A stretch of DNA of 64,000 bases from a virus, in the IMG/VR virus record IMGVR_UViG_3300022752_000048, positions 1-64,000 of that record. One strand, written 5' to 3'. The translations under genes and the position numbers were made by a program. The notes beneath the pieces are model-generated. The model was given only the letters and a program-made list of their open reading frames with translations. It ran no database searches and had not been told where the DNA came from. Shown here one piece after another: positions 4,473 through 57,482 of this stretch. Numbering within the stretch: the first letter of the stretch is position 1; each line of letters opens with the position of its first letter.

Positions 4473-5096
4473 TCACTTAAATATTGAAGAAACTTTTTTT
4501 ACTAAAGAATTCTGTGTAAATTTCTTTTTGATTAAACTATCAACGCTGTCAGCAGCGTCTTCCGGAGAATAATCTTGTTTAACGTTTTCTCGCCAATAAT
4601 ATCCAACAAAGGACGCACCTTCCACTGACATTTGCCCAGCTTGAATATTTGCTTGGATATCTGTAAACATGCCTTTTGCATAAAATTGCAAATTACCTAA
4701 TTTATCTCTAATCTCAATAGATACGTAAGGTTGATGCAAATAAGACTGAATTGTCGAGTATAAAGAATCTGATCCTAAAGATCTATTTGGGTCAACAATT
4801 CTTCTTAAGTTAGCTTTTATAGACATTTGTCCTGGAACAATCTCCCACGGTAAATATTGATCAATTGTTCTTATTTCTGTTACACTAGCTGTAACAGAAT
4901 AACTTACATCTAATGCAGCACCAATCGTTTTTCCATTAACCAAAAGTTTTGCTCTGGCACCAGAGCCGTAATTAGGAAAATTAGGAGATGGTTTACCATC
5001 AAGAAGAGCATTAGTCTCGGCTTTTCTGCGTTCATTTGCAACGTCAAGATCCCCAAGCAAAGCATTTTTAAATTGATTTTCTTGAAAGATGCCCAT
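4473..5096 (-). CDS. Tail tube-like protein (paralog 3)
   Basis: SGARAKLLVNGKTIGAALDVSYSV...EIRTIDQYLPWEIVPG aligns by eye with 5862..6515 and 6532..7065. Confidence 0.6.
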   Translation of the reverse strand: MGIFQENQFKNALLGDLDVANERRKAETNALLDGKPSPNFPNYGSGARAKLLVNGKTIGAALDVSYSVTASVTEIRTIDQYLPWEIVPGQMSIKANLRRIVDPNRSLGSDSLYSTIQSYLHQPYVSIEIRDKLGNLQFYAKGMFTDIQANIQAGQMSVEGASFVGYYWRENVKQDYSPEDAADSVDSLIKKKFTQNSLVKKVSSIFK

Positions 5097-5122
5097 ATAT
5101 ATATTGTCTCCGTATTAATAAA

Positions 5123-5131
5123 ATCGTACCA
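5123..5131 (-). promoter_or_regulatory. Extended -10-like element TGGTACGAT upstream of 4473..5096
   Basis: Matches the TGnTAnnAT pattern also seen at 18198 and 25191; followed by GGAG and the ATG. Confidence 0.35.
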
Positions 5132-5151
5132 TGTATCAAAGAGGAAAATAC

Positions 5152-5865
5152 ATGATTTACGCTGATTTTCATGACGTATATTTTAATCTTTTGGAAGAAC
5201 TTTATAGCCGACCACAATATGTTTCTGCGCCACGGGGCCAAAAGATACACGAACTTGTCGGTAAACAGTTTGTCATTAATCCTAATCTTGGGATAAAACT
5301 GGATTGGACAAAGACTGGCCTACCAGAACGCCAACCAATCTACGATAATTACTGTAAAAAAGAACTTGATTGGTATCTAAGCGGTAATCTTAGGGCAGAT
5401 TCTGCACCCGCCAAATTCTGGCAAACAATTGCCGACGAAAATGGAATTATTACTAGCAACTATGGATACCTTACCTTGTTTGCCAAGAAGTACCCCACCA
5501 GTGGGGGGGAGTGGCTTACTGGTTATGAATTTGTGGTAAAAACTCTTAAAAAGGACAGGGATAGTCGCCAAGCAATTATGCATTACGGCGAATCAAAAAA
5601 TTTTTGGGAAGGGAATAAGGATACGCCATGTTGCGCTAATAATCAGTTTATTATTCGTAATGACGAACTAGTTTGTATTATTAATTTTCGCAGTTGGGAT
5701 ATATTCTTGGGTGTGCCATACGACATTGAATTTATGCACTATCTACAAACTAAAATTGCAGATCAATTAAACGTAAAAACCGGCACTATTATTTGTAATG
5801 CCGGTAGTTTACATCTATACGAACGAGACTTCGAGAAAGCTAAAAAGGCGCTGCGGAAAGATTAA
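5152..5865 (+). CDS. Thymidylate synthase-family pyrimidine C5 (hydroxy)methylase, dCMP-type specificity residue
   Basis: DRDSRQA, DTPC (catalytic Cys), RSWDIFLGVPYD, GSLHLYE. Asp (GAC 5722-5724) sits where dUMP enzymes have Asn. Start set at ATG 5152 because GAGGA lies at 5141-5145. Confidence 0.85.
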   Translation: MIYADFHDVYFNLLEELYSRPQYVSAPRGQKIHELVGKQFVINPNLGIKLDWTKTGLPERQPIYDNYCKKELDWYLSGNLRADSAPAKFWQTIADENGIITSNYGYLTLFAKKYPTSGGEWLTGYEFVVKTLKKDRDSRQAIMHYGESKNFWEGNKDTPCCANNQFIIRNDELVCIINFRSWDIFLGVPYDIEFMHYLQTKIADQLNVKTGTIICNAGSLHLYERDFEKAKKALRKD

Positions 5866-6515
5866 AGATCATTAACCTTAACACTAGAAGCTTCAACAGG
5901 TTTACCAGCTTTTTTACGAATAGCGATAAGTCCTTGGAATTCTACCGATTCTGTGAGCAGAGCCCCAGGCGAGATACTAGCGCTAGCGCCAGAAAGTCGG
6001 CAATCTTTAATTTCCATAAACACTGTTTCGTCCCCTTGAACCCAATCCTTATCTTTCTTAACAGATGGAACTTTCATTTTGATAGTAATGTCAAACGATT
6101 TAGACAAAAGAATGGTACGAGGATCAAGATGCTTAGCAAGCTCTGAACTGCCAGTTAATGCACCAGTGCCTTGTTCGGAAGTTGTAGAATTAGCAATAAC
6201 GGCATCTTTGGCAAGACCTTTTAGGTCACCGACCTCTTCTTTCGTTCTAACTAGAGAATTTGGCATTTTGGTGGCCGCACTCACATTTTCTTTACGGACT
6301 GCCTCGGTAAGAAGGCGAATAACTTGAAAAGAACCAGTAACAGGCATCATAGCCATTGGTTCAATTGATTCTAGTTCAAATTGACCAAGAACACGAATCT
6401 CTTGAAGACTAATACCAACATTTAGGCTTAGGCCAACTGCATACGCAATTTTGGCGCTGTCAACCTCAATTGTACAGAGAGGCGCAGAAGCAAATAATGG
6501 AAGTTTGTTGGACAT
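5862..6515 (-). CDS. Tail tube-like protein (paralog 2)
   Basis: KIAYAVGLSLNV...EIRVLGQFELESIEP...IKDCRLSGASASISPGALLTESVEFQG, a tube-protein pattern. Confidence 0.65.
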   Translation of the reverse strand: MSNKLPLFASAPLCTIEVDSAKIAYAVGLSLNVGISLQEIRVLGQFELESIEPMAMMPVTGSFQVIRLLTEAVRKENVSAATKMPNSLVRTKEEVGDLKGLAKDAVIANSTTSEQGTGALTGSSELAKHLDPRTILLSKSFDITIKMKVPSVKKDKDWVQGDETVFMEIKDCRLSGASASISPGALLTESVEFQGLIAIRKKAGKPVEASSVKVNDL

Positions 6516-6531
6516 GTTATCCTCTCTTTAA

Positions 6532-7065
6532 TTAGTCAATGGCTTTTGCGATTCGGTCTTCAATCCTTCGACAAAGGAATGAAACGTTCTCTACCAAAAG
6601 CTCACCGGGAACAAAGTTAAAATTATAATTTTGAATGCGACAATCTTTTAAAACAAATAGAAGAGTTCCTTCTACTTGTCCTTCGTCTGCTTTTTTCTCG
6701 TAGACTTCAATGTCAAAAGTTGTTGACAATAAAAGTTTTTGAGGATTAAATGCGGTGTCGCTAACAATAGAGTTGCCTATAAGATCTGGCTTAGATGCTG
6801 TCTCTGCCATATTGTCAGGAAGCGTGTTTTTGTCATTTTTACGTTTTTCCAGCATATCATCGGTCCAACGCAAAATCTGCATAGAGCCACTAGCGGCAAA
6901 GCTGGTAGGCTCTAAAGCTAGTACATCGTATGCACCAACACCCATTACTGCTGTATGGGCTACGTTTCTTTGGAATGAAAGGCTTTGTGCAAATGCTACT
7001 CGAATATCACCAATTCGAATAACAAGGTTTGCGCCTGTTAAAAACGATGGAATTTGTCCAGCCAT
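6532..7065 (-). CDS. Tail tube-like protein (paralog 1)
   Basis: FLTGANLVIRIGDIRVAFAQSLSF...LKDCRIQNYNFNFVPGELLVENVSFLC; clearly homologous to 5862..6515. Confidence 0.65.
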   Translation of the reverse strand: MAGQIPSFLTGANLVIRIGDIRVAFAQSLSFQRNVAHTAVMGVGAYDVLALEPTSFAASGSMQILRWTDDMLEKRKNDKNTLPDNMAETASKPDLIGNSIVSDTAFNPQKLLLSTTFDIEVYEKKADEGQVEGTLLFVLKDCRIQNYNFNFVPGELLVENVSFLCRRIEDRIAKAID

Positions 7066-36920: not shown

Positions 36921-39900
36921 AGTAAGATATCCTCTGGTTTAGAAATACGTGGTACTTCAAAACTTCCGACTTTAATAACACCCTCATTTGCTATTGGCAG
37001 GGTGTATGTAATTTGGACGCTTTTAACACCAGGTACTTCTTGAATATGCTTTATAACTTGGCTAATTACAACTTCTTTACCAACGCCCAATGAGTTGATA
37101 TATGTTGTGATTGAAGATTTAATTGGATTTTTAATTGTATTTAGAGAAATACCATCACTCGACTCTACGGAAACGCCAATCTGAATGCTCTTAATCAGAG
37201 GTGCAAGAACTTCGATTGAGGTACCCGCAGCTCTAACACCGGGATAAGCAATAGTGTTGGAGGGCAAGCCATCAAGCACCTTGTGAGCTTCTGCAATTAA
37301 TTCAGAATAGTAATTATATGCATCAACCCCAACGGTTGTTGAAGAATCAAAATTAAGTTTATGCAAACATTTAATTTGAGTGTTAAAGGCCGGACTTAAT
37401 TTATACGCCGAAACTTGGGGCATTAAATATAATTCTGCATCGGTTTGAATTGTATTATGATGCGCATAACCAGATACCCATCTATAGCCTTTATAGGGAA
37501 CTGCTTCTTCAAAAGTAATTGCATTTTTTGAGTTTGCCAAAACAACTTGTTTTGAAACGCTTGTTGCATTAACAATATCGGCTTCAACAAAAATATCAAA
37601 TTCGCTGTTAACACCAATTTTAGTGATTGGCCATTTTCCGATTAAAGACGTATCAAACCAGGTTGTTGTACCGACATTTGGAGTTTTAACAATCAAATAA
37701 TCATTTTCAAATACAGAATCAATATCCCATATTCTCACATGGCGCTTGTCTTGTGTGTTAATTGTGTGTGTGTCCCCAATTGGCCCTACTTGCCAGTTTG
37801 AGCTTCCTATTGTGTTATCTGAATTAATAACATCTTCTTTGAAAGAAAGAACTTCTTCAACGGCTTCATCATTTTTAATAATGAATGCATTCTTACCATT
37901 ATGGGCAATAATTTTGAATCGACCGCGATTCGCAACCGCAAAGGCATCGGAAAATGAAATTAAATCATCAGAACTTACTGATAAGTCATGTAACTGCATA
38001 TCGTCATGTGAATCAAATGCAAAATCGACATAAACAAACCCGTTTCCTAACGGTTTAATTCGGTAATAAACTGACTCATCTGAAGATATCTTCCACGAAG
38101 AAAGATCTTTAGGCGCACCAGATTTATAGTTTGTTTTAACATTTTTCTCATTTTTAAGCATCGAAACAAACATAAATTCTGTTGTTTCGCGAATAATACC
38201 AATGCCATCTCTATTTGATTCGTTTTCCGTATCATTTAATCTGGCTGTTGTTACATAAATATTCGAAGCATCTTTGCCTATAATCCTAGATCTTGTGTTG
38301 TTTAAATCATTTGTGAACCCAGAAATAGTTACCGTATCGCCTACATAAAAATTGGCAATGTTAACCAACGGACCAATTTTTACAGAACCGGTATATATAC
38401 CAACACTTTGATAAATTGCAGACATTTCATTAGAATCTGTAGTTTTTCTAGCATAGACTGTTTCTGGAACAATGTTTGGAGCAATCACGTAAATAACTTT
38501 TTCGTCTTCAATATGAACAACTGGATAGCCAATATATTGATCTGTTAAGTCTTCTGTTGGCGTAACACATTGGTTGTTAACATTAAATAATGATGTGTAA
38601 TTAACGGGATATGGGGAAGATATATTTTTTGATCCTCTAAGGATCAACATATCTCCAACTTTTGTATTAAAGGTACCAGTTCCCGAAATGATTGCTATTT
38701 TTGCAATTGAACTTGTTGGTTTTGTGATTTCAACAGTTTCATCGCCAACTAATCCGCTAAGAGATTTTCTAAATACAAAACGGCCTTTATTTGGTGAAGG
38801 TCTTGTGTATGAAACAACAGTTGAGATTTTAAACCAGGTTTCAATATCAGATGAATTTGTTGCAGTAATTTTTGAATCTGTAGGCAATGCACTTGGTTGT
38901 GTACGATATGCTCTGTAAATGGGGGCGGTGATTGAGTTATATACTTCTACAAAAGATCCACGGGCAAATGACTGAGCTAGAGGAAAGTCTGTTCTGATTT
39001 TAACCGATGTACCTTGTTTAGAAGCAGCATTTTTTGCTTTTGCCGTTACTGTGTTTGCAGTTACACCGGTAATCTTAACAGCTCCAGCAGCTCCTAAGTG
39101 TAATGAATTTATTTGAATGTTTTTCTCATCGGTGATACGAGAAACCTCGGCTTGAATATTAAGCGGGCTGATGGCTGTGAATTTTAACCATTTTTCTAAA
39201 GCTTTTGCTGAAGCAGGAATCAAAACACATTCTTGGTCAGAATAAACAGAGCTAAATCCAGTATTTAAAATTTTTGATGATTCTGGCAACACGGAATCAT
39301 CGGACTGAACGAGAGCGATGATTTTATTATCAATTGGAGAATATGTATGAATATGCGCAACACAGCCAAAAGGTGCCCGCGCAGAATGATAATAATTACT
39401 TTCTGTAAGAGTTGTGAAATCGGTTCTCGGAACTATATTTCCGTGAGTGTGATACGTTGGAAATTTAATTGGAGAACCAGTATTAGTTGTTGGTGTAGCT
39501 TCAATTGTAAACACTGGATTATTTGTATAATATTCGCCAGCTTTAGCAATTACGTCTTGGATAGACTTTTGTAGTGTAGTGAACGACTGGATAGGAGCGT
39601 AATCGGAAATGTAACTAACTGGTGTATACGTAGTTTGGCGAACACCGGGAGCAGAAACAACAATTGTGTTAGGATCTGGAGTTTCGATAATTAAAAATGA
39701 GCCTGAATATGTTTGAGAACCGCCGATATTTAAAATATCGCCAATTAAGAACGCTCCAGATAGGTTAATAGAAAGAGCACTAATTGTCAGTTTAACAATT
39801 TCTGCGCCAGTAGGACTGGTGTAATCAGATGGCGTAATTGTATAAGAACCGGTATATTGGGTACCTAAAACAGTCGCACCTGAACAAAGAGTACAGTTTA

Positions 39901-42900
39901 CGACTAAAACAGAGCGATCTTCTTCTTGAAAAGATTCATGCGTGAATTGAATTTGCGACGAATTTGGATGTAATGGATAAGAAAAATTAAATCTAAAATC
40001 ATGCACTGGGCCATATTGAGTAGACCTAATAACTAATGCGTCTGATGGATTTCCACCGAACGGCAAAGTTGGATATATTGTATGAATAATTGTTGGTTTA
40101 AACAAAATATTAAAATCGGTAAAATCAAACGAACGATATGGGCTGTTAGGTTCAAAAAATGGACGTGGTTCATCCGTAATTAATTTATCTTCTGGATCTT
40201 TTAGCGTAAAAATAAGTTGATTTCCTGGCCCCGCTCCAAACGGCTGAACAACTTCGGTTAATGCCTTTTTATACATTGGTATATTAGTTGTTTTGTTAGT
40301 TGAGTCTAAATCCATTTGCACAACTAGACGATCAACTGGAGTTAATGGAATATCGTTTAGTCTTAAAGATAGATTTGACCTTGTTGCATTTGAGCCATAA
40401 ACGGTTTGAGGCAGAGGAGGAATTGTGTCTACTCCGCGTGCAAAACCACCAAATGGAGCAGTTGAATCGTTATTATAAATACGAGAAATAATATTCTCAT
40501 TGCGACCAGTGATAAAAGCTTCTTGTAAACCTTTTGGATAATGAATGATATTTGCAGATGCGACAATTGCTGGATCTGCAACATCGTTTAAAACTTCAGT
40601 TTCCGTTGTTAGAAAACCTAAATAACCACGAGTGTTGTAAAAATCTTTTGGTAAAGTAGGATCACCGGTATTAGTAATATACGGAGCGCCGCTTCCAACA
40701 AAACCACTTTTCTTTGCAGCGATATGCGGCTGAATACTATCAGCAATCATTTGACTGAATAAATTTGTAGCCGATGAAATAGAAGCTAAAATGGCTATTG
40801 TAGATTTGTTTTGATCAAAATTATTTGATCTAATAGCAATTTGTCGAGGAGATAGTTTATATGCAGTTGCACCGATTAATTGTTTGTTAATTTCTGTTAC
40901 AAGAACATCAGCTGTTTGATAATCCGAAACTGGAATGTTTATGATTTGAGGAACAGCATTGTCTATTTTAAATGCAGAAAGCATCCCAGAAGTTAAGTCA
41001 AAAGATGATGGAGTCAAAGGAGCATATCCATCAATTGTGGTGTCACCAGAACCAGAAGAAGCGACAGCAGATACTGGAAGATCTACATAGAATGTGTCCG
41101 TGGTTGGCGCGGGGGACGATTTAACAACGGCTGTAACTGGGAATGATAATCCTGGGAAAATAGATTGTGTTAACGCACTTGCGCCTGTAATTTGAAATGA
41201 ATCTAGTTGTAAAAATCCATGATTTGGAAGAATCACTTTGATTGTCGGAGAACCAAGGGTCGATTCAATTAAAGTCTCGGAGAAAATACCAAAGAAAGCT
41301 TCTCGTTCAACTTTTGAAGTTTCAATATCAATAAATGTATCTTTAGAAACAGAAAAGTTAATAGTATTAGGAGCAAAAACTGCGGTAACACCAGCAATTT
41401 GTTTTTTGAATTTAAAAACAGTACTGCTATCTACAGCAGAAACTACATGGGTTCCAATAATTGCTGAATCTAAAAAGCTTGTACCAACAGCTAGGCTGGC
41501 TGCTGTAATTTCGAACGACTGCCCTACAACAAATTTATGATCTTCTGTTGTAGTGACCGTAAATGTTACATTGCCATTTACGTCAGTGGTTGAATATTGA
41601 GTTGGCACTAAGTTAAAATTTTGATCTGCGCTTCTTGTGCAAAGTCCTTTTTTCAGAACTTTCATTACACTATTAGTACGACCGGGTAGTCTATTTGCTA
41701 CGGCGGAGTCACTATTTAAATAAATATAATCACCTAATTCGATACTAGAATATAACGCTATATCAGAACTGTGTAGTCTAACTACTGTAGAATTAGGCGA
41801 TACGATTTCTGGAGTAAGAGAGCTAGCACCTGTAAGTCCAAGTGTTCTTAATTCAAATTGTCCGTCGACACCAACAATAATTCTTGGAGTGCCAAGATTT
41901 GTGTTACCTGCCGAAAATAAACCGCTCGGTGCTGACTTTGATTGAATTTCTGCACGAGTAAATTTTGATGAAACGGTAATATTATCATTTAGTTGTGGCT
42001 CGTTAAGAAGTTTAATTTCGCCGCTGATTCTGTTAATTTCAAAATCCGGTGTTGCACCAACGCTTTCTAATACGTGTGAAGATTTAAATATTTTATTTAC
42101 GCCAATCCACGTTGCTGGTGCGCCTGTGGAAGTTGTCGATTCGATTTTAATTGAACCAAAAGGGCTCAACGATTGCCATGAAGCAAAGGCGAGTTTAGAA
42201 CCAACTTGATAAACATTAACACCCGCAACTTTTTTCTTAAATACTGTGATCCAATCGGTTAACTGCGCAGATGCAACGGTGCGACCAAGAGCAAGCATAT
42301 CATTATTATCGATAGTGAATGTTTGGGTTACACCATCAACTGTCATTCTGACATTCTGTAAATCTAAATCAGTTAGCGACAGCCAAGGAAAATCTGCTGA
42401 GTAAACTACTGCAGATAAACCTTTGAATGACAAAAGCTTATTATTTTTGTAAACGTAAATTGGTCTAATCTGATGAGTGGGAAGTCCTAAAATAGCTTGA
42501 AGTTTACTCGGTAAAATCTGTAAAGTTTCTGCACGACCAGAAATATCAAATACAGAAAACGTAGTTCCGTCGTTAGCAGTTCTGAATCCTAATGCTGAAG
42601 AGCCACTAAGAATAACGCCGTTAAAAGCTCGCACGATTTCGGATGGTGAAACTGAAGAGAGGTTTGTATATTCGGATTGATTAATTTCAAATCGAGTAGG
42701 CACACCATCAAGAATGATGTCCAAATACATGCCATCTTGCAATACATATGGAGCAGGCTCAACTCCAACAGCAACACAGGGTGTGATTGGTTTATTAGAA
42801 GTTTTTAAGAAGATTTCTTGCCCACTAGAATTCACCAACAACTGTTCAAAATCTTGCCCTTTATACGAGGGCTCTAATCCTGAACCATCATCAATATAAA

Positions 42901-52299: not shown

Positions 52300-53235
52300 T
52301 TGGAGTCGTCTATGGCAATTGATTTAAGTAAGATGACATTTGGCGCTGAGTTAGAACTGGGTGATGTTGATACAAAAATTGTTTTACCGCCCGGAAATAG
52401 ATGGTGCGATAAAGACGGATCTATCTGTAATTCCAACGGAACTGCAAACGATCCCAAAAAAATCTTCAATCGATATGGCGGCGAAATCCAAATGAAACCG
52501 GAAAACACACCGGAAGAATTGCTTCGTGCTACGAAGGAGATTTACGACCTTCTCCCTAAAAAACATTTTAACTTTACAACTAATTTACACGTTCATATTC
52601 GTATCCCCGGCCTTAAAGACGATTTAGAGGCCCTAAAGAAAATTGTCACGTATCTTCGAAAATATGATGAAGAAATCTATGAACTTATAGATCCAAACCC
52701 ATTTCCAGAGCGTCAGCTAAAGTTTTCAAATCCAGATTTTTATAATGGTGCAGTCTCAAGATGGCGTCGAAGGAATAAATCCCATAGATACCGGGTTACA
52801 GAAAAAGTTTATAAACTTATGATGAATGCCAAATCTCCACGCGAATTTTACGAGGCACACGCCCCCAAGAATCGTTTTGGACAACCTATGTGGCATGTTG
52901 TTGTTAGGGCTGGTGTTAACCTAAAACAAATATTCGAAGATACGGAAACTATTGAGTTTCGGCATTTCACGATGTCGCCAGATTTAAACAAAATGCTTTC
53001 CGCCTATAAATGGCCAAAGCTTTTGATGGAAGCTATTTTTGTTACTGGTCATACACCAAAACAAATTTTAGAAAACAATCCAGATCTGGTATTTCAAAAC
53101 TTTCATCCGTATGACCACGGGCTAGACAAAATTTTTAGGCAGACTAATGTTTATCATAACAAACGTTCAGAAGTACGAGAGAATTACAAGCGTTTAATCG
53201 AACAAGGTTTGATAAACGAACAGTCCTTATATTGA
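52300..53235 (+). CDS. Amidoligase (glutamine synthetase-like COOH-NH2 ligase family)
   Basis: TFGAELE, DGSI, GGEI, LHVHI, ETIEFRHF motifs. The real start may be the ATG of MAIDLSK. Confidence 0.8.
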   Translation: MESSMAIDLSKMTFGAELELGDVDTKIVLPPGNRWCDKDGSICNSNGTANDPKKIFNRYGGEIQMKPENTPEELLRATKEIYDLLPKKHFNFTTNLHVHIRIPGLKDDLEALKKIVTYLRKYDEEIYELIDPNPFPERQLKFSNPDFYNGAVSRWRRRNKSHRYRVTEKVYKLMMNAKSPREFYEAHAPKNRFGQPMWHVVVRAGVNLKQIFEDTETIEFRHFTMSPDLNKMLSAYKWPKLLMEAIFVTGHTPKQILENNPDLVFQNFHPYDHGLDKIFRQTNVYHNKRSEVRENYKRLIEQGLINEQSLY

Positions 53236-53242
53236 GGAATAT

Positions 53243-53695
53243 ATGAAAATTTTATTTATCTGTACTGGCAATAAATTCCGCAGTCCAACTGCGGAGCATA
53301 TTATGAAATGCCTAGCGCCGCATTTAGAAGTTAAATCCGCTGGAACCGCAGAAGGAGCTGATAAAAACTATTTAATGGCTAAAAAAATGCGTCGTTGTTT
53401 AGTGGAATTAGGTTATCCCGAGCCTAAAATTCGGTCGCAGCATGTTACGGATGATCTTATGAATTGGGCTGATGTAGTTTTTTATATGGCACCAATTCAT
53501 GGTAAATATTTGTTTGAAAACCATTACCCGTTTATTAATAAAACCCAAGGTTTATACAGTTGGCTTCCAGAAGAAAGTTTAAAAAGGATTGAAGACCCCG
53601 CCTTTATTAAAAATCACGAAGATGTAATGGAAATTACTAAATTAATTGAAAAAGCTGTAAAATCAATTCTGGCACAACAAGCTAAGCGTATTTAA
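53243..53695 (+). CDS. Low-molecular-weight phosphatase (LMW-PTP/ArsC fold)
   Basis: ILFICTGNKFRSPTAE (CX5R), SAGT, WADVVFYM, IEDP general acid. Confidence 0.88.
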   Translation: MKILFICTGNKFRSPTAEHIMKCLAPHLEVKSAGTAEGADKNYLMAKKMRRCLVELGYPEPKIRSQHVTDDLMNWADVVFYMAPIHGKYLFENHYPFINKTQGLYSWLPEESLKRIEDPAFIKNHEDVMEITKLIEKAVKSILAQQAKRI

Positions 53696-53925
53696 ATTTC
53701 AGAATTGCTGATTTTGTTTTTTTGACGAGAGCCTGTTGGGATAGAGGTACCCGGAAGTTTAGGAGCTTCCGGCATTTTTATTTCTGGAGCTTTAAATGTA
53801 GTTTTCTTGGAAATAGAAGATACAGTGCCGTCCAGAATTTTATACATTCTGTCTTGGACAGTTTCGGCAGGGGTGGATTTAGCCATTTTCTTGCATAGTT
53901 CGACTATTTCTAATAGCTTGTTCAA
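53692..53925 (-). CDS. Small basic protein
   Basis: 77 aa; LCKKMAKS resembles the N-terminus of 50511..52217. Confidence 0.45.
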   Translation of the reverse strand: MNKLLEIVELCKKMAKSTPAETVQDRMYKILDGTVSSISKKTTFKAPEIKMPEAPKLPGTSIPTGSRQKNKISNSEI

Positions 53926-54415
53926 GTTCGGCCTCTGTTACAATCCAAGGTGGTACGCAAACCATTTTATGCTCTATTTTACCATATTGGATATTGGATA
54001 AAAAAGGCTTCATGAGTTCTTGTTCATCTTGGTGGCGATTTTCTTTAATATAACCGATACTATTGATATTTTTATCAAGTAGTTTAGACATACAAGCCAT
54101 GCAGGGCTGGATACTCACAATAAATTGATATTTATGAATATTCATTGTTTCTGTCATCTTTTCAATAAGATCTGCCTCGGCATGACGAACTAAGAATTTT
54201 TTGGCAGGATTTTTGTCGATTGCAAGTTCAGCAAGAGCCTTTGAACTTTTTTCAAAAGCAGAAATTATCTTATTAACGCCGTAGGCAACAACCGAATTTG
54301 TTGAAGGGTCTATGGCAATTGAAACTACCTGAACTAGTGGATCGCTACTTCGTTTTTTAAGAACGTCAAATAGGATCTCGGTGCTAACTACAGGATAGGT
54401 GCCGTAGACAAACAT
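53879..54415 (-). CDS. Zn-dependent (d)CMP deaminase-family protein
   Basis: HAE...QPCMAC zinc motif; overlaps the kinase 3' end. Confidence 0.8.
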   Translation of the reverse strand: MFVYGTYPVVSTEILFDVLKKRSSDPLVQVVSIAIDPSTNSVVAYGVNKIISAFEKSSKALAELAIDKNPAKKFLVRHAEADLIEKMTETMNIHKYQFIVSIQPCMACMSKLLDKNINSIGYIKENRHQDEQELMKPFLSNIQYGKIEHKMVCVPPWIVTEAELEQAIRNSRTMQENG

Positions 54416-55026
54416 TCTTTAATTCCTTGCTGTAGCTTTTGCACTACTTGTTCGGGTGAATCTTCAAAATCTACTTTTACTAGAGTAACAGGGGCGCGGC
54501 ATAAATCCAAGAAATATCCTACGCACATCTTTGCTCTATCTGTAAATACCTGAACATTATTAAATGTTAAATCAGGAAGTCGTTCTTCGACAATTCCGGC
54601 ATTTTTTCTGCGGAGCGAAAGGCGTTCTCTGATTTTTTCTACTGCAAAGTCGTAATGAACTACTACAACACGAATATCTTGTTTATGGCGATATTCGTTC
54701 ACCATTTCAACCCAACGTGAGGTCGACATAACGCCATCGATAATAACTGTATCTGATAGCTCTAGAGCATCGAAAAAACCAGTTCTAACTAAGGATGGTG
54801 TGGTTATAGAATCCGTGCCAGAATTTTTATTACCAACCAAAACACAATTATCATATTGAACAATACTATATTTTTGCTCAATCGTAGCACCTCTATTTGG
54901 CATCCGCTTTTTAATGAATTTACCCATCTTAGAAATTTCTTTGCCGGCCCCCTGGCAAAAAGTGTTTCTAGTGGTAGTTTTACCTGTTGCGCCTGCGCCC
55001 ATAAGGAAAATTGCTAGCTTAGTCAT
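54388..55026 (-). CDS. P-loop kinase, 5-hydroxymethylpyrimidine DNA kinase (5-HMUDK)-like
   Basis: IFLMGAGATGKTT, VLVG...SGTDSI, VIIDGV, RERLSLRR; neighbour of an aGPT-Pplase2 gene. Confidence 0.75.
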   Translation of the reverse strand: MTKLAIFLMGAGATGKTTTRNTFCQGAGKEISKMGKFIKKRMPNRGATIEQKYSIVQYDNCVLVGNKNSGTDSITTPSLVRTGFFDALELSDTVIIDGVMSTSRWVEMVNEYRHKQDIRVVVVHYDFAVEKIRERLSLRRKNAGIVEERLPDLTFNNVQVFTDRAKMCVGYFLDLCRAPVTLVKVDFEDSPEQVVQKLQQGIKECLSTAPIL

Positions 55027-55403: not shown

Positions 55404-55733
55404 TTACTCTAATTCTGCACCCATATCGACGATCCCCTCCTTTTGAAGGAGCGAAAGGGCAAATACTCTTTTAGAATCTGCAAAGTTTTTAGTTTCGTTA
55501 AACGCACTTCTAAAAGTTTGTAAAATTTCTTGTGCAGCCTTGAATTCTGGATTAGCTTCCATTTCCTTCTTAGCTTTAAGTACGTGCGCATTTTGTTCTG
55601 CAATAATCTGTTTTAGTTTATCTACATTATAAGTTTTAAGCATTTGCAATTCATCATAAGAATAGTTTTTTACAAACGCTTTTTCAATGTCACTCAAATG
55701 GCTATATTTATTTGACTTACTCTTCTTTCTCAT
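55404..55733 (-). CDS. Hypothetical helical protein
   Basis: 109 aa, ATGA overlap with the transferase gene. Confidence 0.55.
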   Translation of the reverse strand: MRKKSKSNKYSHLSDIEKAFVKNYSYDELQMLKTYNVDKLKQIIAEQNAHVLKAKKEMEANPEFKAAQEILQTFRSAFNETKNFADSKRVFALSLLQKEGIVDMGAELE

Positions 55734-56593
55734 ACGACATCCTCCACAAAAAGTAATTGCTGGTTTTTAATATATGCAGTTTTTTCTTTTACTGAAAAAT
55801 GGTGTTGAAGAAATTTATGATCAAATCCGCATTCATCAATTAAATTCCAAAATACGTCATCTGTATAAATTTCTGGCTTTTTAAGAACTAAAAACTCATT
55901 GATATCATGTCCAACTACATAACTCCCCTTATGCAATATTTTAGGTACTTTACACAAACAACTTTCGACTTGACCAATTGGCGCATTCCACACTCTAGAT
56001 AAGTTCCAACCTAGAGCTTCCCATTCTGGAATTATGTCTTTTGTAAATTTTTGGTTAATTCCATATAGGTAGCGAAGCCCAAACACCGGCCCAGTGTTTT
56101 TATTAGGGTCAGCATTCTCGATTCCTAATCCATTAATGCGAAGGCTGTTATATCTCAGTGTTTGATCCATAAGCTCACAGGTTTTATAGCAAGCCCAGTC
56201 CCCAAAATATGGGATCGTTTTAAACAGTTCTCGTCCGCTATTAAAATCTAGAGGTTTTGTTTTGAGTGTAGTTTCGACTTTTGTCCATTTATCAAAAGCT
56301 TTTTCAAAATTTTCAATACGACGAACTTGCGGAGTTCTACCCCGTTCCATACCAAAGCGGCTGATTTTTTCAAACATTTGTGTAGGACTTTTTCCATCAG
56401 AAAGTCCACGCATAAACAAGATCATGCTTTCGATAGAATAATAATAAACGTACATAAAAATTGCGGTTTCCGGATCAAATTTTTCATGTTTAATAATTGA
56501 TTTTAGGAGAGGATAAACAGGATCAACGTCTTTGGTATGGATTAAGGCTAGGCTTGCCTTCTCGAAATCGGAAAAATTAAATAGATGTTGCAT
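55730..56593 (-). CDS. aGPT-Pplase2-family amino acid:DNA transferase
   Basis: LIHTKDVDPVYPLL, GMERG, FGDWACYKTCELMD (HhH-like), ESCLCK, YVVGHDI. Confidence 0.8.
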   Translation of the reverse strand: MQHLFNFSDFEKASLALIHTKDVDPVYPLLKSIIKHEKFDPETAIFMYVYYYSIESMILFMRGLSDGKSPTQMFEKISRFGMERGRTPQVRRIENFEKAFDKWTKVETTLKTKPLDFNSGRELFKTIPYFGDWACYKTCELMDQTLRYNSLRINGLGIENADPNKNTGPVFGLRYLYGINQKFTKDIIPEWEALGWNLSRVWNAPIGQVESCLCKVPKILHKGSYVVGHDINEFLVLKKPEIYTDDVFWNLIDECGFDHKFLQHHFSVKEKTAYIKNQQLLFVEDVV

Positions 56594-57482
56594 ACAAATA
56601 CTCTTGAACTGCGTCGGCTAGTTCTTTAATATATGTTGGTGCATGGCGTAAACCATTTGCGGACTTTGGTGTCACATACATCGAAGCACCTTCTTGAATA
56701 AACGCATGTGAATAGTCTTCCATATAAGCCGGCCTCCACCCTGTTTTAGGATCACCGGTAACTTGGATGCCTACCTTCCCATCGGTTACTTTAGAAATAT
56801 GTTCAATAATTTTTTCAATTTTATCTTTAATTTCTAGATCTTTTTGTTCTTTTTGATAAATAAAATGAGTACCTAGATAATAGGTGTCTGTAGTTGGCCT
56901 TGGATATAAATAGGCGTTAATAAAACGGCCTTCTTTAGCATTTAAACAAAACCTTGGATAACGATCAAATACTTCTCCACTTGGTTTGCATTCTACTGAC
57001 CAACCCCAACGATAATCCGTTGGTTTGTATTTGTGAAAACCATTTGCATGGATAACAAGTCGATTGGTTGGTGTTTTGTCTACGCGGCTAGAAAAGAAAA
57101 ATTCTTGAGTAAATTGTACAAATGCCTGTACATTAACATGCATTGATTGTTTATTTAAAATTTTAATATTTCCGACAGTTTCAACAAATTTTAGTTCTTT
57201 GGAATTATTATGATGCGGAATGCTTTTCTGTGTATACCCATAAGGAACAGCTTCGGAAAACAAAATAATCGGGCGACGATCTGCTTGGCCAAATGATTGC
57301 AGCCATAAGTTATAGTTAACTTCGTCTAGCTCCTCACCGGACGGATAAATACACCCAGTGCTGGCTTTCCATGCACCGGGTGAATCATTGTCTTCCCACG
57401 AAAACATAATTTTTCTATTTGTTAATTCCCAAGCAAGGAGCGAGCCAATTAATCCAAAGCCCTTAATATGTACTGTAGACAT
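56577..57482 (-). CDS. FAD-dependent oxidoreductase (DAO/glycine oxidase-like)
   Basis: VHIKGFGLIGSLLAWEL Rossmann motif, AWKASTG, GWRP, NGLRHAP; overlaps the transferase gene. Confidence 0.8.
   Translation of the reverse strand: MSTVHIKGFGLIGSLLAWELTNRKIMFSWEDNDSPGAWKASTGCIYPSGEELDEVNYNLWLQSFGQADRRPIILFSEAVPYGYTQKSIPHHNNSKELKFVETVGNIKILNKQSMHVNVQAFVQFTQEFFFSSRVDKTPTNRLVIHANGFHKYKPTDYRWGWSVECKPSGEVFDRYPRFCLNAKEGRFINAYLYPRPTTDTYYLGTHFIYQKEQKDLEIKDKIEKIIEHISKVTDGKVGIQVTGDPKTGWRPAYMEDYSHAFIQEGASMYVTPKSANGLRHAPTYIKELADAVQEYLYATSI

Follow-up and report, generated by a model that had tools for sequence, protein, structure and literature searches.

What does a lone thymidylate synthase (TS)-family gene do among the structural genes of a phage, and is it connected with a DNA modification cluster at the other end of the same stretch of sequence? 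This question is raised by the window analyzed here, a stretch of 64,000 nucleotides (positions 1 to 64,000 of IMG/VR virus record IMGVR_UViG_3300022752_000048) that is part of a 79,376-bp virus contig estimated to be about 48% complete. The phage is known from metagenomes only, and a nucleotide search of its first 20 kb against cultured phages returned no match. Hypermodifications of phage DNA block restriction enzymes and other host defenses, and they are a source of enzymes for epigenetic sequencing. Our analysis indicates that the TS-family gene (positions 5152..5865, plus strand; 237 amino acids [aa] plus stop) is likely to encode a deoxycytidine monophosphate (dCMP) 5-hydroxymethylase and to be, in this lineage, the only evident source of hydroxymethyl-pyrimidines for the cluster at 52–57 kb. 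The phage thus probably makes modified DNA by an undescribed route.

The membership of the protein in the TS family was determined by profile, structure, and catalytic residues. It matched Pfam PF00303 (Thymidylat_synt) with an E value of 2e-23 (83.3 bits against a cut-off of 24.3) and PHROG 160 with an E value of 8e-38. Its best sequence matches in the PDB were, in order, T4 dCMP hydroxymethylase (dCH, gp42; 2e-18) and MilA (3e-17), with Escherichia coli ThyA at approximately 3e-14. An AlphaFold2 model built from 22 homologues had a mean pLDDT of 93.9, and Foldseek ranked MilA, T4 dCH, and then thymidylate synthases as its closest structures, with TM-scores of approximately 0.75–0.84 to MilA, T4 dCH, and ThyA. 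The core catalytic residues of the family, defined in E. coli numbering as Glu58, Tyr94, Cys146, Arg166, Ser167, Asp169, His207, and Tyr209, all aligned with residues of the protein (E71, Y104, C160, R180, S181, D183, H221, and Y223, respectively). Taken alone, the enzyme is divergent but otherwise an unremarkable new member of a family that is well understood.

To assign the enzyme to a class, T4 gp42, E. coli ThyA, and the TS homologues of phages SPO1, M6, ViI, phiW-14, PaMx11, and PaMx74 were fetched and aligned with it. The motif-bearing segment INFRSWDIFLGVPYDIEFMHY lies within the translation of the plus-strand open reading frame (ORF) 5131..5865, and the protein from the same ORF contains RSWDIFLGVPYD. 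The initial annotation, made from the sequence alone, had described a TS-family gene with Asp at 5722–5724 in the place of Asn177 of E. coli ThyA and Asp179 of T4 dCH. The codon (5722..5724, plus strand) reads GAC, and the alignment confirmed that this residue, Asp191, occupies the base-specificity position. Asn177/Asp179 sets the preference for uracil or cytosine, and no other positions separate viral contigs with modified cytosine from unmodified ones as well as 177 and 147 do (PMC8670742); swaps at the former position (D179N in T4 dCH and N177D in ThyA) alter base preference (PMC6400193, PMC8670742). Two further motifs bear on the chemistry. The segment D157-T-P-C160-C161 (5620..5634, plus strand) carries an Asp three residues before the catalytic Cys (Cys-3), the catalytic Cys itself, and a Cys that replaces His147 of ThyA, and Ser102-Asn-Tyr104 (5455..5463, plus strand) forms a Ser-x-Tyr motif that matches Ser94/Tyr96 of T4 dCH. 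In T4 dCH, the exocyclic methylene is attacked by a water that Asp145, at Cys-3, activates, Ser94 and Tyr96 hold a catalytic water, and D145N and D179N each abolish activity; Asp or Glu at Cys-3 together with Ser-x-Tyr has been proposed as a signature of hydroxymethylation (PMC6400193).

The reference enzymes were distinguished at five features, namely the T4 Ser94 position, Cys-3, ThyA positions 147 and 177, and the tail, counted as the residues after the His-x-Tyr motif. The query has Ser, Asp, Cys, Asp, and a tail of 14 residues, and T4 gp42 has Ser, Asp, Thr, Asp, and 28 residues. In E. coli ThyA these features are Pro, Leu, His, Asn, and 55 residues. The deoxyuridine monophosphate (dUMP) hydroxymethylases of SPO1, M6, ViI, and phiW-14 have Ala or Gly, Asp, Asn, Asn, and 119–157 residues, and PaMx11 gp51 agrees with them in the Asp at Cys-3 and the Asn at 147 and 177. 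The PaMx74 homologue has Ala (as Ala-x-Tyr), Asn, Pro, Asp, and 61 residues. In addition, Ile93 of the query aligns with Val85 of T4 dCH and Trp83 of ThyA. Thus, the sequence marks of a T4 gp42-type dCMP hydroxymethylase are all present: Asp191, D157 with S102-N-Y104, and the short tail with Ile93. Where ThyA has Asn177, His147, Leu143, Trp83, and a C-terminal tail that closes over the folate, the query has Asp, Cys, Asp, Ile, and a short tail; where the dUMP hydroxymethylases have Asn at 177 and 147, it has Asp and Cys; and where the CMP-specific MilA has Ala176 and Lys133, it has Ser181 and Arg139, as in T4.

Overall, the query and T4 gp42 (PDB 1b49, 1b5d, 6a9a) have the same fold and are alike at all discriminating positions of the active site. 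They have in common the Glu, the Ser-x-Tyr, the Asp at Cys-3, the catalytic Cys followed by a residue other than His, the Arg-Ser-x-Asp, the base-specificity Asp, a small hydrophobic residue in place of Trp83, and the absence of a ThyA-like C-terminal tail. They differ in the residue after the catalytic Cys (Cys in the query, Thr in T4) and in genomic setting, as the query gene stands alone on the opposite strand in a structural module and is paired with thymidine-type hypermodification genes. A glucosyltransferase gene was not seen, although no search aimed at one was made. On these residues, the gene most likely encodes a T4 gp42-like dCMP hydroxymethylase. The initial annotation had proposed a dCMP hydroxymethylase or methylase rather than a ThyA; the residues and PDB matches support this proposal and appear to narrow it to a hydroxymethylase. 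A hydroxymethylase is favored over a methylase because the published signature is present and invariant, while the PaMx74 homologue has Asn, Ala-x-Tyr, and the 61-residue tail. The query also does not follow the rule for dCMP methylases (Asp177, a non-acidic residue at Cys-3, and a long tail), which was derived from a single reference sequence, the putative PaMx74 enzyme.

A homologue search of 5.8 billion proteins recovered 70 sequences, all of which carry the base-specificity Asp. Asp157, Cys160, Ser102, Tyr104, and Asp191 were invariant in the 22-sequence alignment (A1). None of the cultured-phage proteins was more than 34% identical to the query. The nearest of them (33.6%) belongs to the T4-like Acinetobacter phage AB1I1M-1, where the gene lies directly upstream of two glucosyltransferase genes. 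A TS homologue adjoining glucosyltransferase genes is the classical arrangement for 5-hydroxymethylcytosine (5hmC). In a maximum-likelihood tree, the query fell in a clade of 18 uncultured sequences (support 99/99), and this clade and T4 gp42 lay within one 27-row set (97/88). The dUMP hydroxymethylases of SPO1, M6, ViI, and phiW-14 formed a clade of their own (100/98). ThyA stood on a long branch, and the tree therefore has no reliable root. In this phylogeny, of the kind that the initial annotation had called for, the query shares a supported set with T4 gp42 but is not its sister. Among other phages, the TS homologues of Agathobaculum phage AB434P2 (L099, 3838–4500) and Pseudoxanthomonas phage PW916 (L102, 3280–4098) have Asp at the base-specificity position and Thr at 147. 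Both are labeled ‘deoxyuridylate hydroxymethyltransferase’ in GenBank, although their residues suggest that they are probably cytosine-nucleotide enzymes.

The initial annotation had placed a modification cluster about 46 kb from the TS-family gene, and such a cluster was found at 52.3–57.5 kb. It includes a P-loop kinase of 212 aa (54388..55026, minus strand), which family-profile matches assign to the 5-hydroxymethyldeoxyuridine (5-hmdU) DNA kinase (5-HMUDK) family. This kinase has 65 homologues among 1.84 billion representatives, and the profile built on them matched PaMx11 gp49, a characterized 5-hmdU DNA kinase (2.8e-13), an M6 ORF (41631–42245) between the transferase and TS genes (9.6e-12), and a ViI ORF (38206–38910) beside the TS gene (1.8e-9). 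The profile matched more weakly a 301-aa T4 ORF at 134.0–134.9 kb, which we take to be polynucleotide kinase. Some homologues of the kinase are fused to an amino acid:DNA transferase (P0129), a pyridoxal phosphate enzyme, GNATs, and dual-specificity phosphatases (P0095 and P0111), and the kinase is thus placed in the 5-HMUDK family by profile homology and by transferase linkage or fusion. Pairwise BLAST and phmmer comparisons with PaMx11 gp49 and Tonitrus gp7 were not significant, and these proteins were linked by the family profile only. PaMx11 gp49 (L137, 11218–11787) is annotated as ‘terminase small subunit’ in RefSeq, and the only PHROG match of the window kinase is phrog_800, ‘terminase small subunit’; this label seems apt to mislead annotation throughout the kinase family.

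The amino acid:DNA transferase (AADT; Pfam ‘ADDT’ PF18724, formerly aGPT-Pplase2) is a 287-aa protein (55730..56593, minus strand) identified by its family profile and active site. Although the single sequence matched PF18724 with an E value of only 0.036, 12 of 15 family members matched it (best, 1.6e-13), and the family profile matched the solved AADTs 25qc (5e-8) and 8z2m (4e-6). BLAST also tied the protein to Tonitrus gp6, Kozie gp2, and Phelemich gp3. The catalytic Glu...Cys and the surrounding residues are in place: all of the twelve active-site positions described for PaMx11 gp46 (PMC11472151) are kept, with conservative changes of Thr244 to Ser and Lys261 to His. A scan of the transferase sequence for a feature deciding between uracil and cytosine found none.

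Adjoining the transferase is a 301-aa Rossmann-type (GxGxxG) oxidoreductase-like protein (56577..57482, minus strand). It is a full-length homologue of gp8 of Rhodococcus phage Tonitrus (blastp, 1e-26), which lies within an annotated thymine-hypermodification cluster, and its similarity to PaMx11 gp47 is marginal (0.02–0.04). Single-sequence Pfam and PDB searches with this protein gave no match; its GxGxxG motif and its homology to Tonitrus gp8 suggest that it may bind flavin adenine dinucleotide. On the other side, overlapping the kinase gene, lies a divergent protein of the cytidylate deaminase fold (53879..54415, minus strand; dCMP_cyt_deam_1, 6.6e-6) with an intact HAE ... PCxxC motif. Its PDB matches were a nucleoside deaminase (4e-7) and human dCMP deaminase (0.004). 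The deaminase is kept after the kinase in two relatives (G001 and G004), and in relatives down to 48% transferase identity. The cluster is completed on the plus strand by an amidoligase-like protein (52300..53235; Amidoligase_2, E value 0.0011, below the cut-off), homologues of which adjoin the transferase in the unrelated contigs L120 and L121 (1e-27 to 1e-29), and by a low-molecular-weight phosphatase-family protein (53243..53695; LMWPc, 4.6e-15). In L121 the order is transferase, amidoligase, and then a phosphatase homologue. Amidoligase-like and low-molecular-weight phosphatase genes thus recur beside transferases (L121, 9866–12145; L120, 1832–3614), and the phosphatase seems to be a regular part of transferase pathways.

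The lineage also includes a larger genome, IMGVR_UViG_3300020204_000007 (G001 above; 169,059 bp, rated 100% complete), which is collinear with the window contig. Its TS orthologue is 77% identical, runs in the opposite direction to the same structural genes, which flank it, and is the only PF00303 match of that genome, which also carries the same modification cluster. The synteny check suggested in the initial annotation therefore came out positive, and because the odd position of the gene is kept in G001, it is a stable trait of the lineage and not an assembly artefact. G001 further encodes, at 132950–135330 (L110:12953–15330), a protein of the dUTPase family (9.9e-16) that also weakly resembles dCTP deaminases, a protein resembling thymidylate kinases (1.9e-5), and a further P-loop protein. 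Since separate nucleotide-level enzymes are present, there is no need to regard the cluster kinase as acting on nucleotides. The lineage has two genes of the deaminase fold, the divergent one embedded in the cluster and a more canonical one at 124040–124552 of G001 (L110:4040–4549; PF00383, 5.7e-12), and BLAST found no similarity between the two. At 79205–80699 of G001 (L107:19205–20000 into L108:1–699), a gene for a 2-oxoglutarate (2OG)-Fe(II) oxygenase overlaps that of a PaMx11 gp50 homologue (2.9e-9). PaMx11 gp50 sits between the kinase and dUMP hydroxymethylase genes of PaMx11, and the pair in G001 might belong to the modification system.

No matches were obtained when the cluster proteins were compared by tblastn with 80 viral loci carrying Asp-type TS genes (up to 10 kb on either side), and linkage was therefore examined across whole genomes by way of the transferase, using transferase-bearing genomes with a completeness rating of 90% or more. 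Two of these genomes (G005 and G009) have no TS-family gene and a clear Tet_JBP match. Two others (G006 and G008) have an Asp-type TS, a deaminase near the TS gene, a kinase-transferase pair, and no Tet_JBP match. G001 has an Asp-type TS, the embedded deaminase, the kinase, and the transferase, and its Tet_JBP match reached only 17.8 bits (cut-off, 34.9); the protein concerned is the 2OG-Fe(II) oxygenase (79205–79858), which matched PF13640 (1.8e-17) far better. Among 50 further transferase contigs, a single one had a TS gene, of the Asn type. From the pattern in the complete genomes and these 50 contigs, the combination of an Asp-type TS with a kinase/transferase pathway is uncommon yet recurrent. 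An extra Cys in the transferase (E-[ST]-C-x-C) was considered as a tracker of TS type, as it is present in the transferases of G000/G001, G006, and G008, but it was rejected: it is polyphyletic and also occurs in Tet_JBP contigs without a C5-methyltransferase (G014 and G029). This Cys, two residues before the catalytic one, is found in approximately one-eighth of the subfamily transferases (L177, L206, L149, L150, L178, and L179).

From these observations we infer a substrate, a product, and a pathway beyond hydroxymethyl-dCMP (hm-dCMP). Cys160 would attack C6 of dCMP, Asp191 would bind and protonate the cytosine, and methylene-tetrahydrofolate would supply the one-carbon unit. A water placed by Asp157, Ser102, and Tyr104 would then attack the exocyclic methylene, giving 5-hydroxymethyl-dCMP and not a methyl product. 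Part of the hydroxymethyl-deoxycytidine (hm-dC) nucleotides, as mono- or triphosphates, would be converted by the cluster deaminase to hydroxymethyl-deoxyuridine (hm-dU) nucleotides; 5-hydroxymethyluracil (5hmU) would be incorporated and then, on the DNA, phosphorylated, aminoacylated, trimmed, and amidated, as in PaMx11-like systems. The remaining hm-dC nucleotides may enter DNA as 5hmC. This route from the embedded deaminase through hm-dU nucleotides to 5hmU hypermodification is the one we favor, but tentatively, as its chances appear to be somewhat below even. Phage enzymes of the dCMP deaminase family, encoded beside Asp-type TS homologues, convert 5-methyl-dCTP (5mdCTP) to dTTP and 5-hydroxymethyl-dCTP to 5-hydroxymethyl-dUTP, and deamination of 5mdCTP has been proposed to supply dTTP in Xp12-like phages (bioRxiv 10.1101/2024.12.05.627091). 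Alternatively, the kinase and transferase could act on 5hmC in DNA, where the hydroxymethyl group would be phosphorylated and the phosphate replaced by an amino acid, which the oxidoreductase would trim and the amidoligase would extend. This version would leave the cluster deaminase with a different function, and we regard it as possible but doubtful.

Other explanations begin with the identity of the enzyme. An ordinary thymidylate synthase or a MilA-like ribonucleotide (CMP) hydroxymethylase is hardly credible: the family match is named ‘thymidylate synthase’ and MilA is the top structural match, but the query has none of the ThyA marks (Leu143, His147, Asn177, Trp83, and the C-terminal tail), and CMP preference depends on Ala176 and Lys133 of MilA (PMC6400193), which are Ser and Arg in the query. 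A dCMP methylase of the Xp12/PaMx74 kind would make 5-methyl-dCMP for DNA containing 5-methylcytosine (5mC), with some of it deaminated to thymidine nucleotides, and the deaminase in the cluster fits such a role. The Asp at 177 is common to the query and methylase-type enzymes, and Asn-to-Asp mutants of ThyA methylate dCMP (literature summarized in PMC8670742). PaMx74 itself is reported to have its cytosine entirely replaced by 5mC (bioRxiv 10.1101/2024.12.05.627091), but its enzyme differs from the query in the Cys-3 residue, the Ser-x-Tyr motif, and the tail length given above, and hydroxymethylation is lost in T4 dCH D145N (PMC6400193). A methyl group would also leave the kinase and transferase of the cluster without a substrate, and we consider a methylase very unlikely.

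The same holds for a dUMP hydroxymethylase that, despite the Asp, would feed classical thymidine hypermodification directly. The families of the cluster genes have been shown to act on 5hmU-derived DNA only (PMC8989533), and some Asp-type homologues bear the ‘deoxyuridylate’ label in GenBank, although these labels have no visible experimental support. However, all five dUMP hydroxymethylases examined have Asn at 177 and 147, the four placed in the tree group in a clade of their own, the Asp conserved in 70 of 70 homologues argues against dUMP use, and base preference shifts with the D179N swap in T4 dCH and the N177D swap in ThyA. The hydroxymethylase and the cluster could also be unconnected, the former serving plain or otherwise modified 5hmC and the latter using 5hmU made by other means, for example by an oxygenase such as that of G001. 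The 46 kb between gene and cluster, the weak Tet_JBP match of this oxygenase, and its position next to the PaMx11 gp50 homologue would be consistent with such an arrangement. Against it, the oxygenase scores far better as prolyl-hydroxylase-like (PF13640) and has no BLAST similarity to the TET-like protein of Tonitrus, and the kinase-transferase pairs of G006 and G008 go together with an Asp-type TS and without any Tet_JBP match. This separation of gene and cluster is therefore judged unlikely.

Several points nonetheless weigh against a dCMP hydroxymethylase that supplies the cluster. To our knowledge, the characterized kinase/transferase pathways all use 5hmU from Asn-type dUMP hydroxymethylases or from dioxygenases, and an Asp-type enzyme feeding such a pathway is our proposal. 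The query is only about 26–28% identical to T4 gp42, its clade is not the sister of T4 gp42, and the activity assigned to the protein and to its whole clade is predicted from sequence. A MazG-type dCTPase was not found in G001, G006, or G008, a result that leaves room for other kinds of dCTPase. The cluster deaminase is divergent, G001 has its canonical deaminase elsewhere, and the G001 oxygenase, with its sub-threshold Tet_JBP match, could be another source of 5hmU.

The proposed system shares features with three known ones. The phages with dUMP hydroxymethylases (SPO1 gp29, M6, ViI, phiW-14, and PaMx11 gp51) also encode a 5-HMUDK kinase and an amino acid:DNA transferase (PMC8989533), and their TS-family enzymes have the Asp at Cys-3. 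In contrast to the query, these enzymes have Asn at 177 and 147, Gly or Ala in place of the Ser, and, in the four measured, extensions of 119–157 residues. The dCMP methylase and 5mdCTP deaminase of Xp12/PaMx74 likewise pair an Asp-type TS homologue with an enzyme of the dCMP deaminase family, so that the C5 group is put on a cytosine nucleotide that is then deaminated into the uracil series (bioRxiv 10.1101/2024.12.05.627091). Here, however, the hydroxymethylase signature is present, the deaminase lies in the hypermodification cluster and not beside the TS gene, and the proposed hm-dU nucleotides would feed a post-replicative pathway. The clusters of PaMx11 and Tonitrus (kinase, AADT, and flavin enzyme) resemble the present one in their kinase, transferase, and oxidoreductase families and in the transferase active site. 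PaMx11 uses an Asn-type dUMP hydroxymethylase, Tonitrus a TET/JBP-like dioxygenase with ParB, and the window phage an Asp-type enzyme, in addition to an amidoligase, a phosphatase, and the embedded deaminase.

At the locus itself, ATG 5152 is most likely the real start of the TS-family gene, because the Shine-Dalgarno-like AGAGGA (5140..5145, plus strand) lies 6 nt before it and orthologues begin at the equivalent Met (P0002, P0003, and the protein of the 169-kb relative); the upstream in-frame ATG at 5131 is probably unused. A sigma-70 scan upstream of the gene found no promoter. The gene is the sole plus-strand gene amid a run of minus-strand structural genes and, as described in the initial annotation, shares a TTAA (5862–5865) with its convergent neighbor; this TTAA contains both stops: TAA at 5863–5865 on the plus strand and TTA at 5862–5864, read as TAA on the minus strand. 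A terminator-like hairpin (10 pairs plus a T run; 5779..5805, minus strand; from a consensus scan only) lies inside the 3′ end of the gene, just past the stop of the 217-aa neighbor, and the structural transcript may thus end within the antisense of the TS-family gene.

The neighboring minus-strand genes encode a 207-aa structural-module protein (4473..5096, syntenic in G001), the convergent 217-aa protein (5862..6515), and a 177-aa protein (6532..7065; phrog_985, ‘virion structural protein’). The last two are paralogues (E value, 1e-18), and the 207-aa protein is a weak paralogue of the 217-aa one (E value 7e-5, 20% identity). The window therefore has three consecutive diverged paralogues at 4473–7065, with the TS-family gene between the first and second, and this arrangement is kept in G001. 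The paralogy claimed for the two genes flanking the TS-family gene stood, whereas their label as tail-tube proteins found only a sub-threshold match (Phage_tube_2, E value 0.022) in the 217-aa protein, which is possibly tail-tube-like; the identification of the neighbors as tail-tube proteins is weak.

The new element of this system is a dCMP-hydroxymethylase-type enzyme as the only apparent source of hydroxymethyl-pyrimidine for a thymidine-type hypermodification cluster. An enzyme of the cytosine type is the sole candidate both here and, independently, in at least one further lineage (that of G006/G008). If true, a route that reaches 5hmU by way of cytosine would parallel, at the hydroxymethyl level, the conversion of 5mC nucleotides to thymidine nucleotides in Xp12. 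We know of no amino-acid-type hypermodified cytosine, and if the kinase and transferase instead act on 5hmC, the product would be a hypermodified cytosine of a chemical class known so far only for thymine. Either outcome, if true, would extend the known biosynthetic logic of phage DNA hypermodification.

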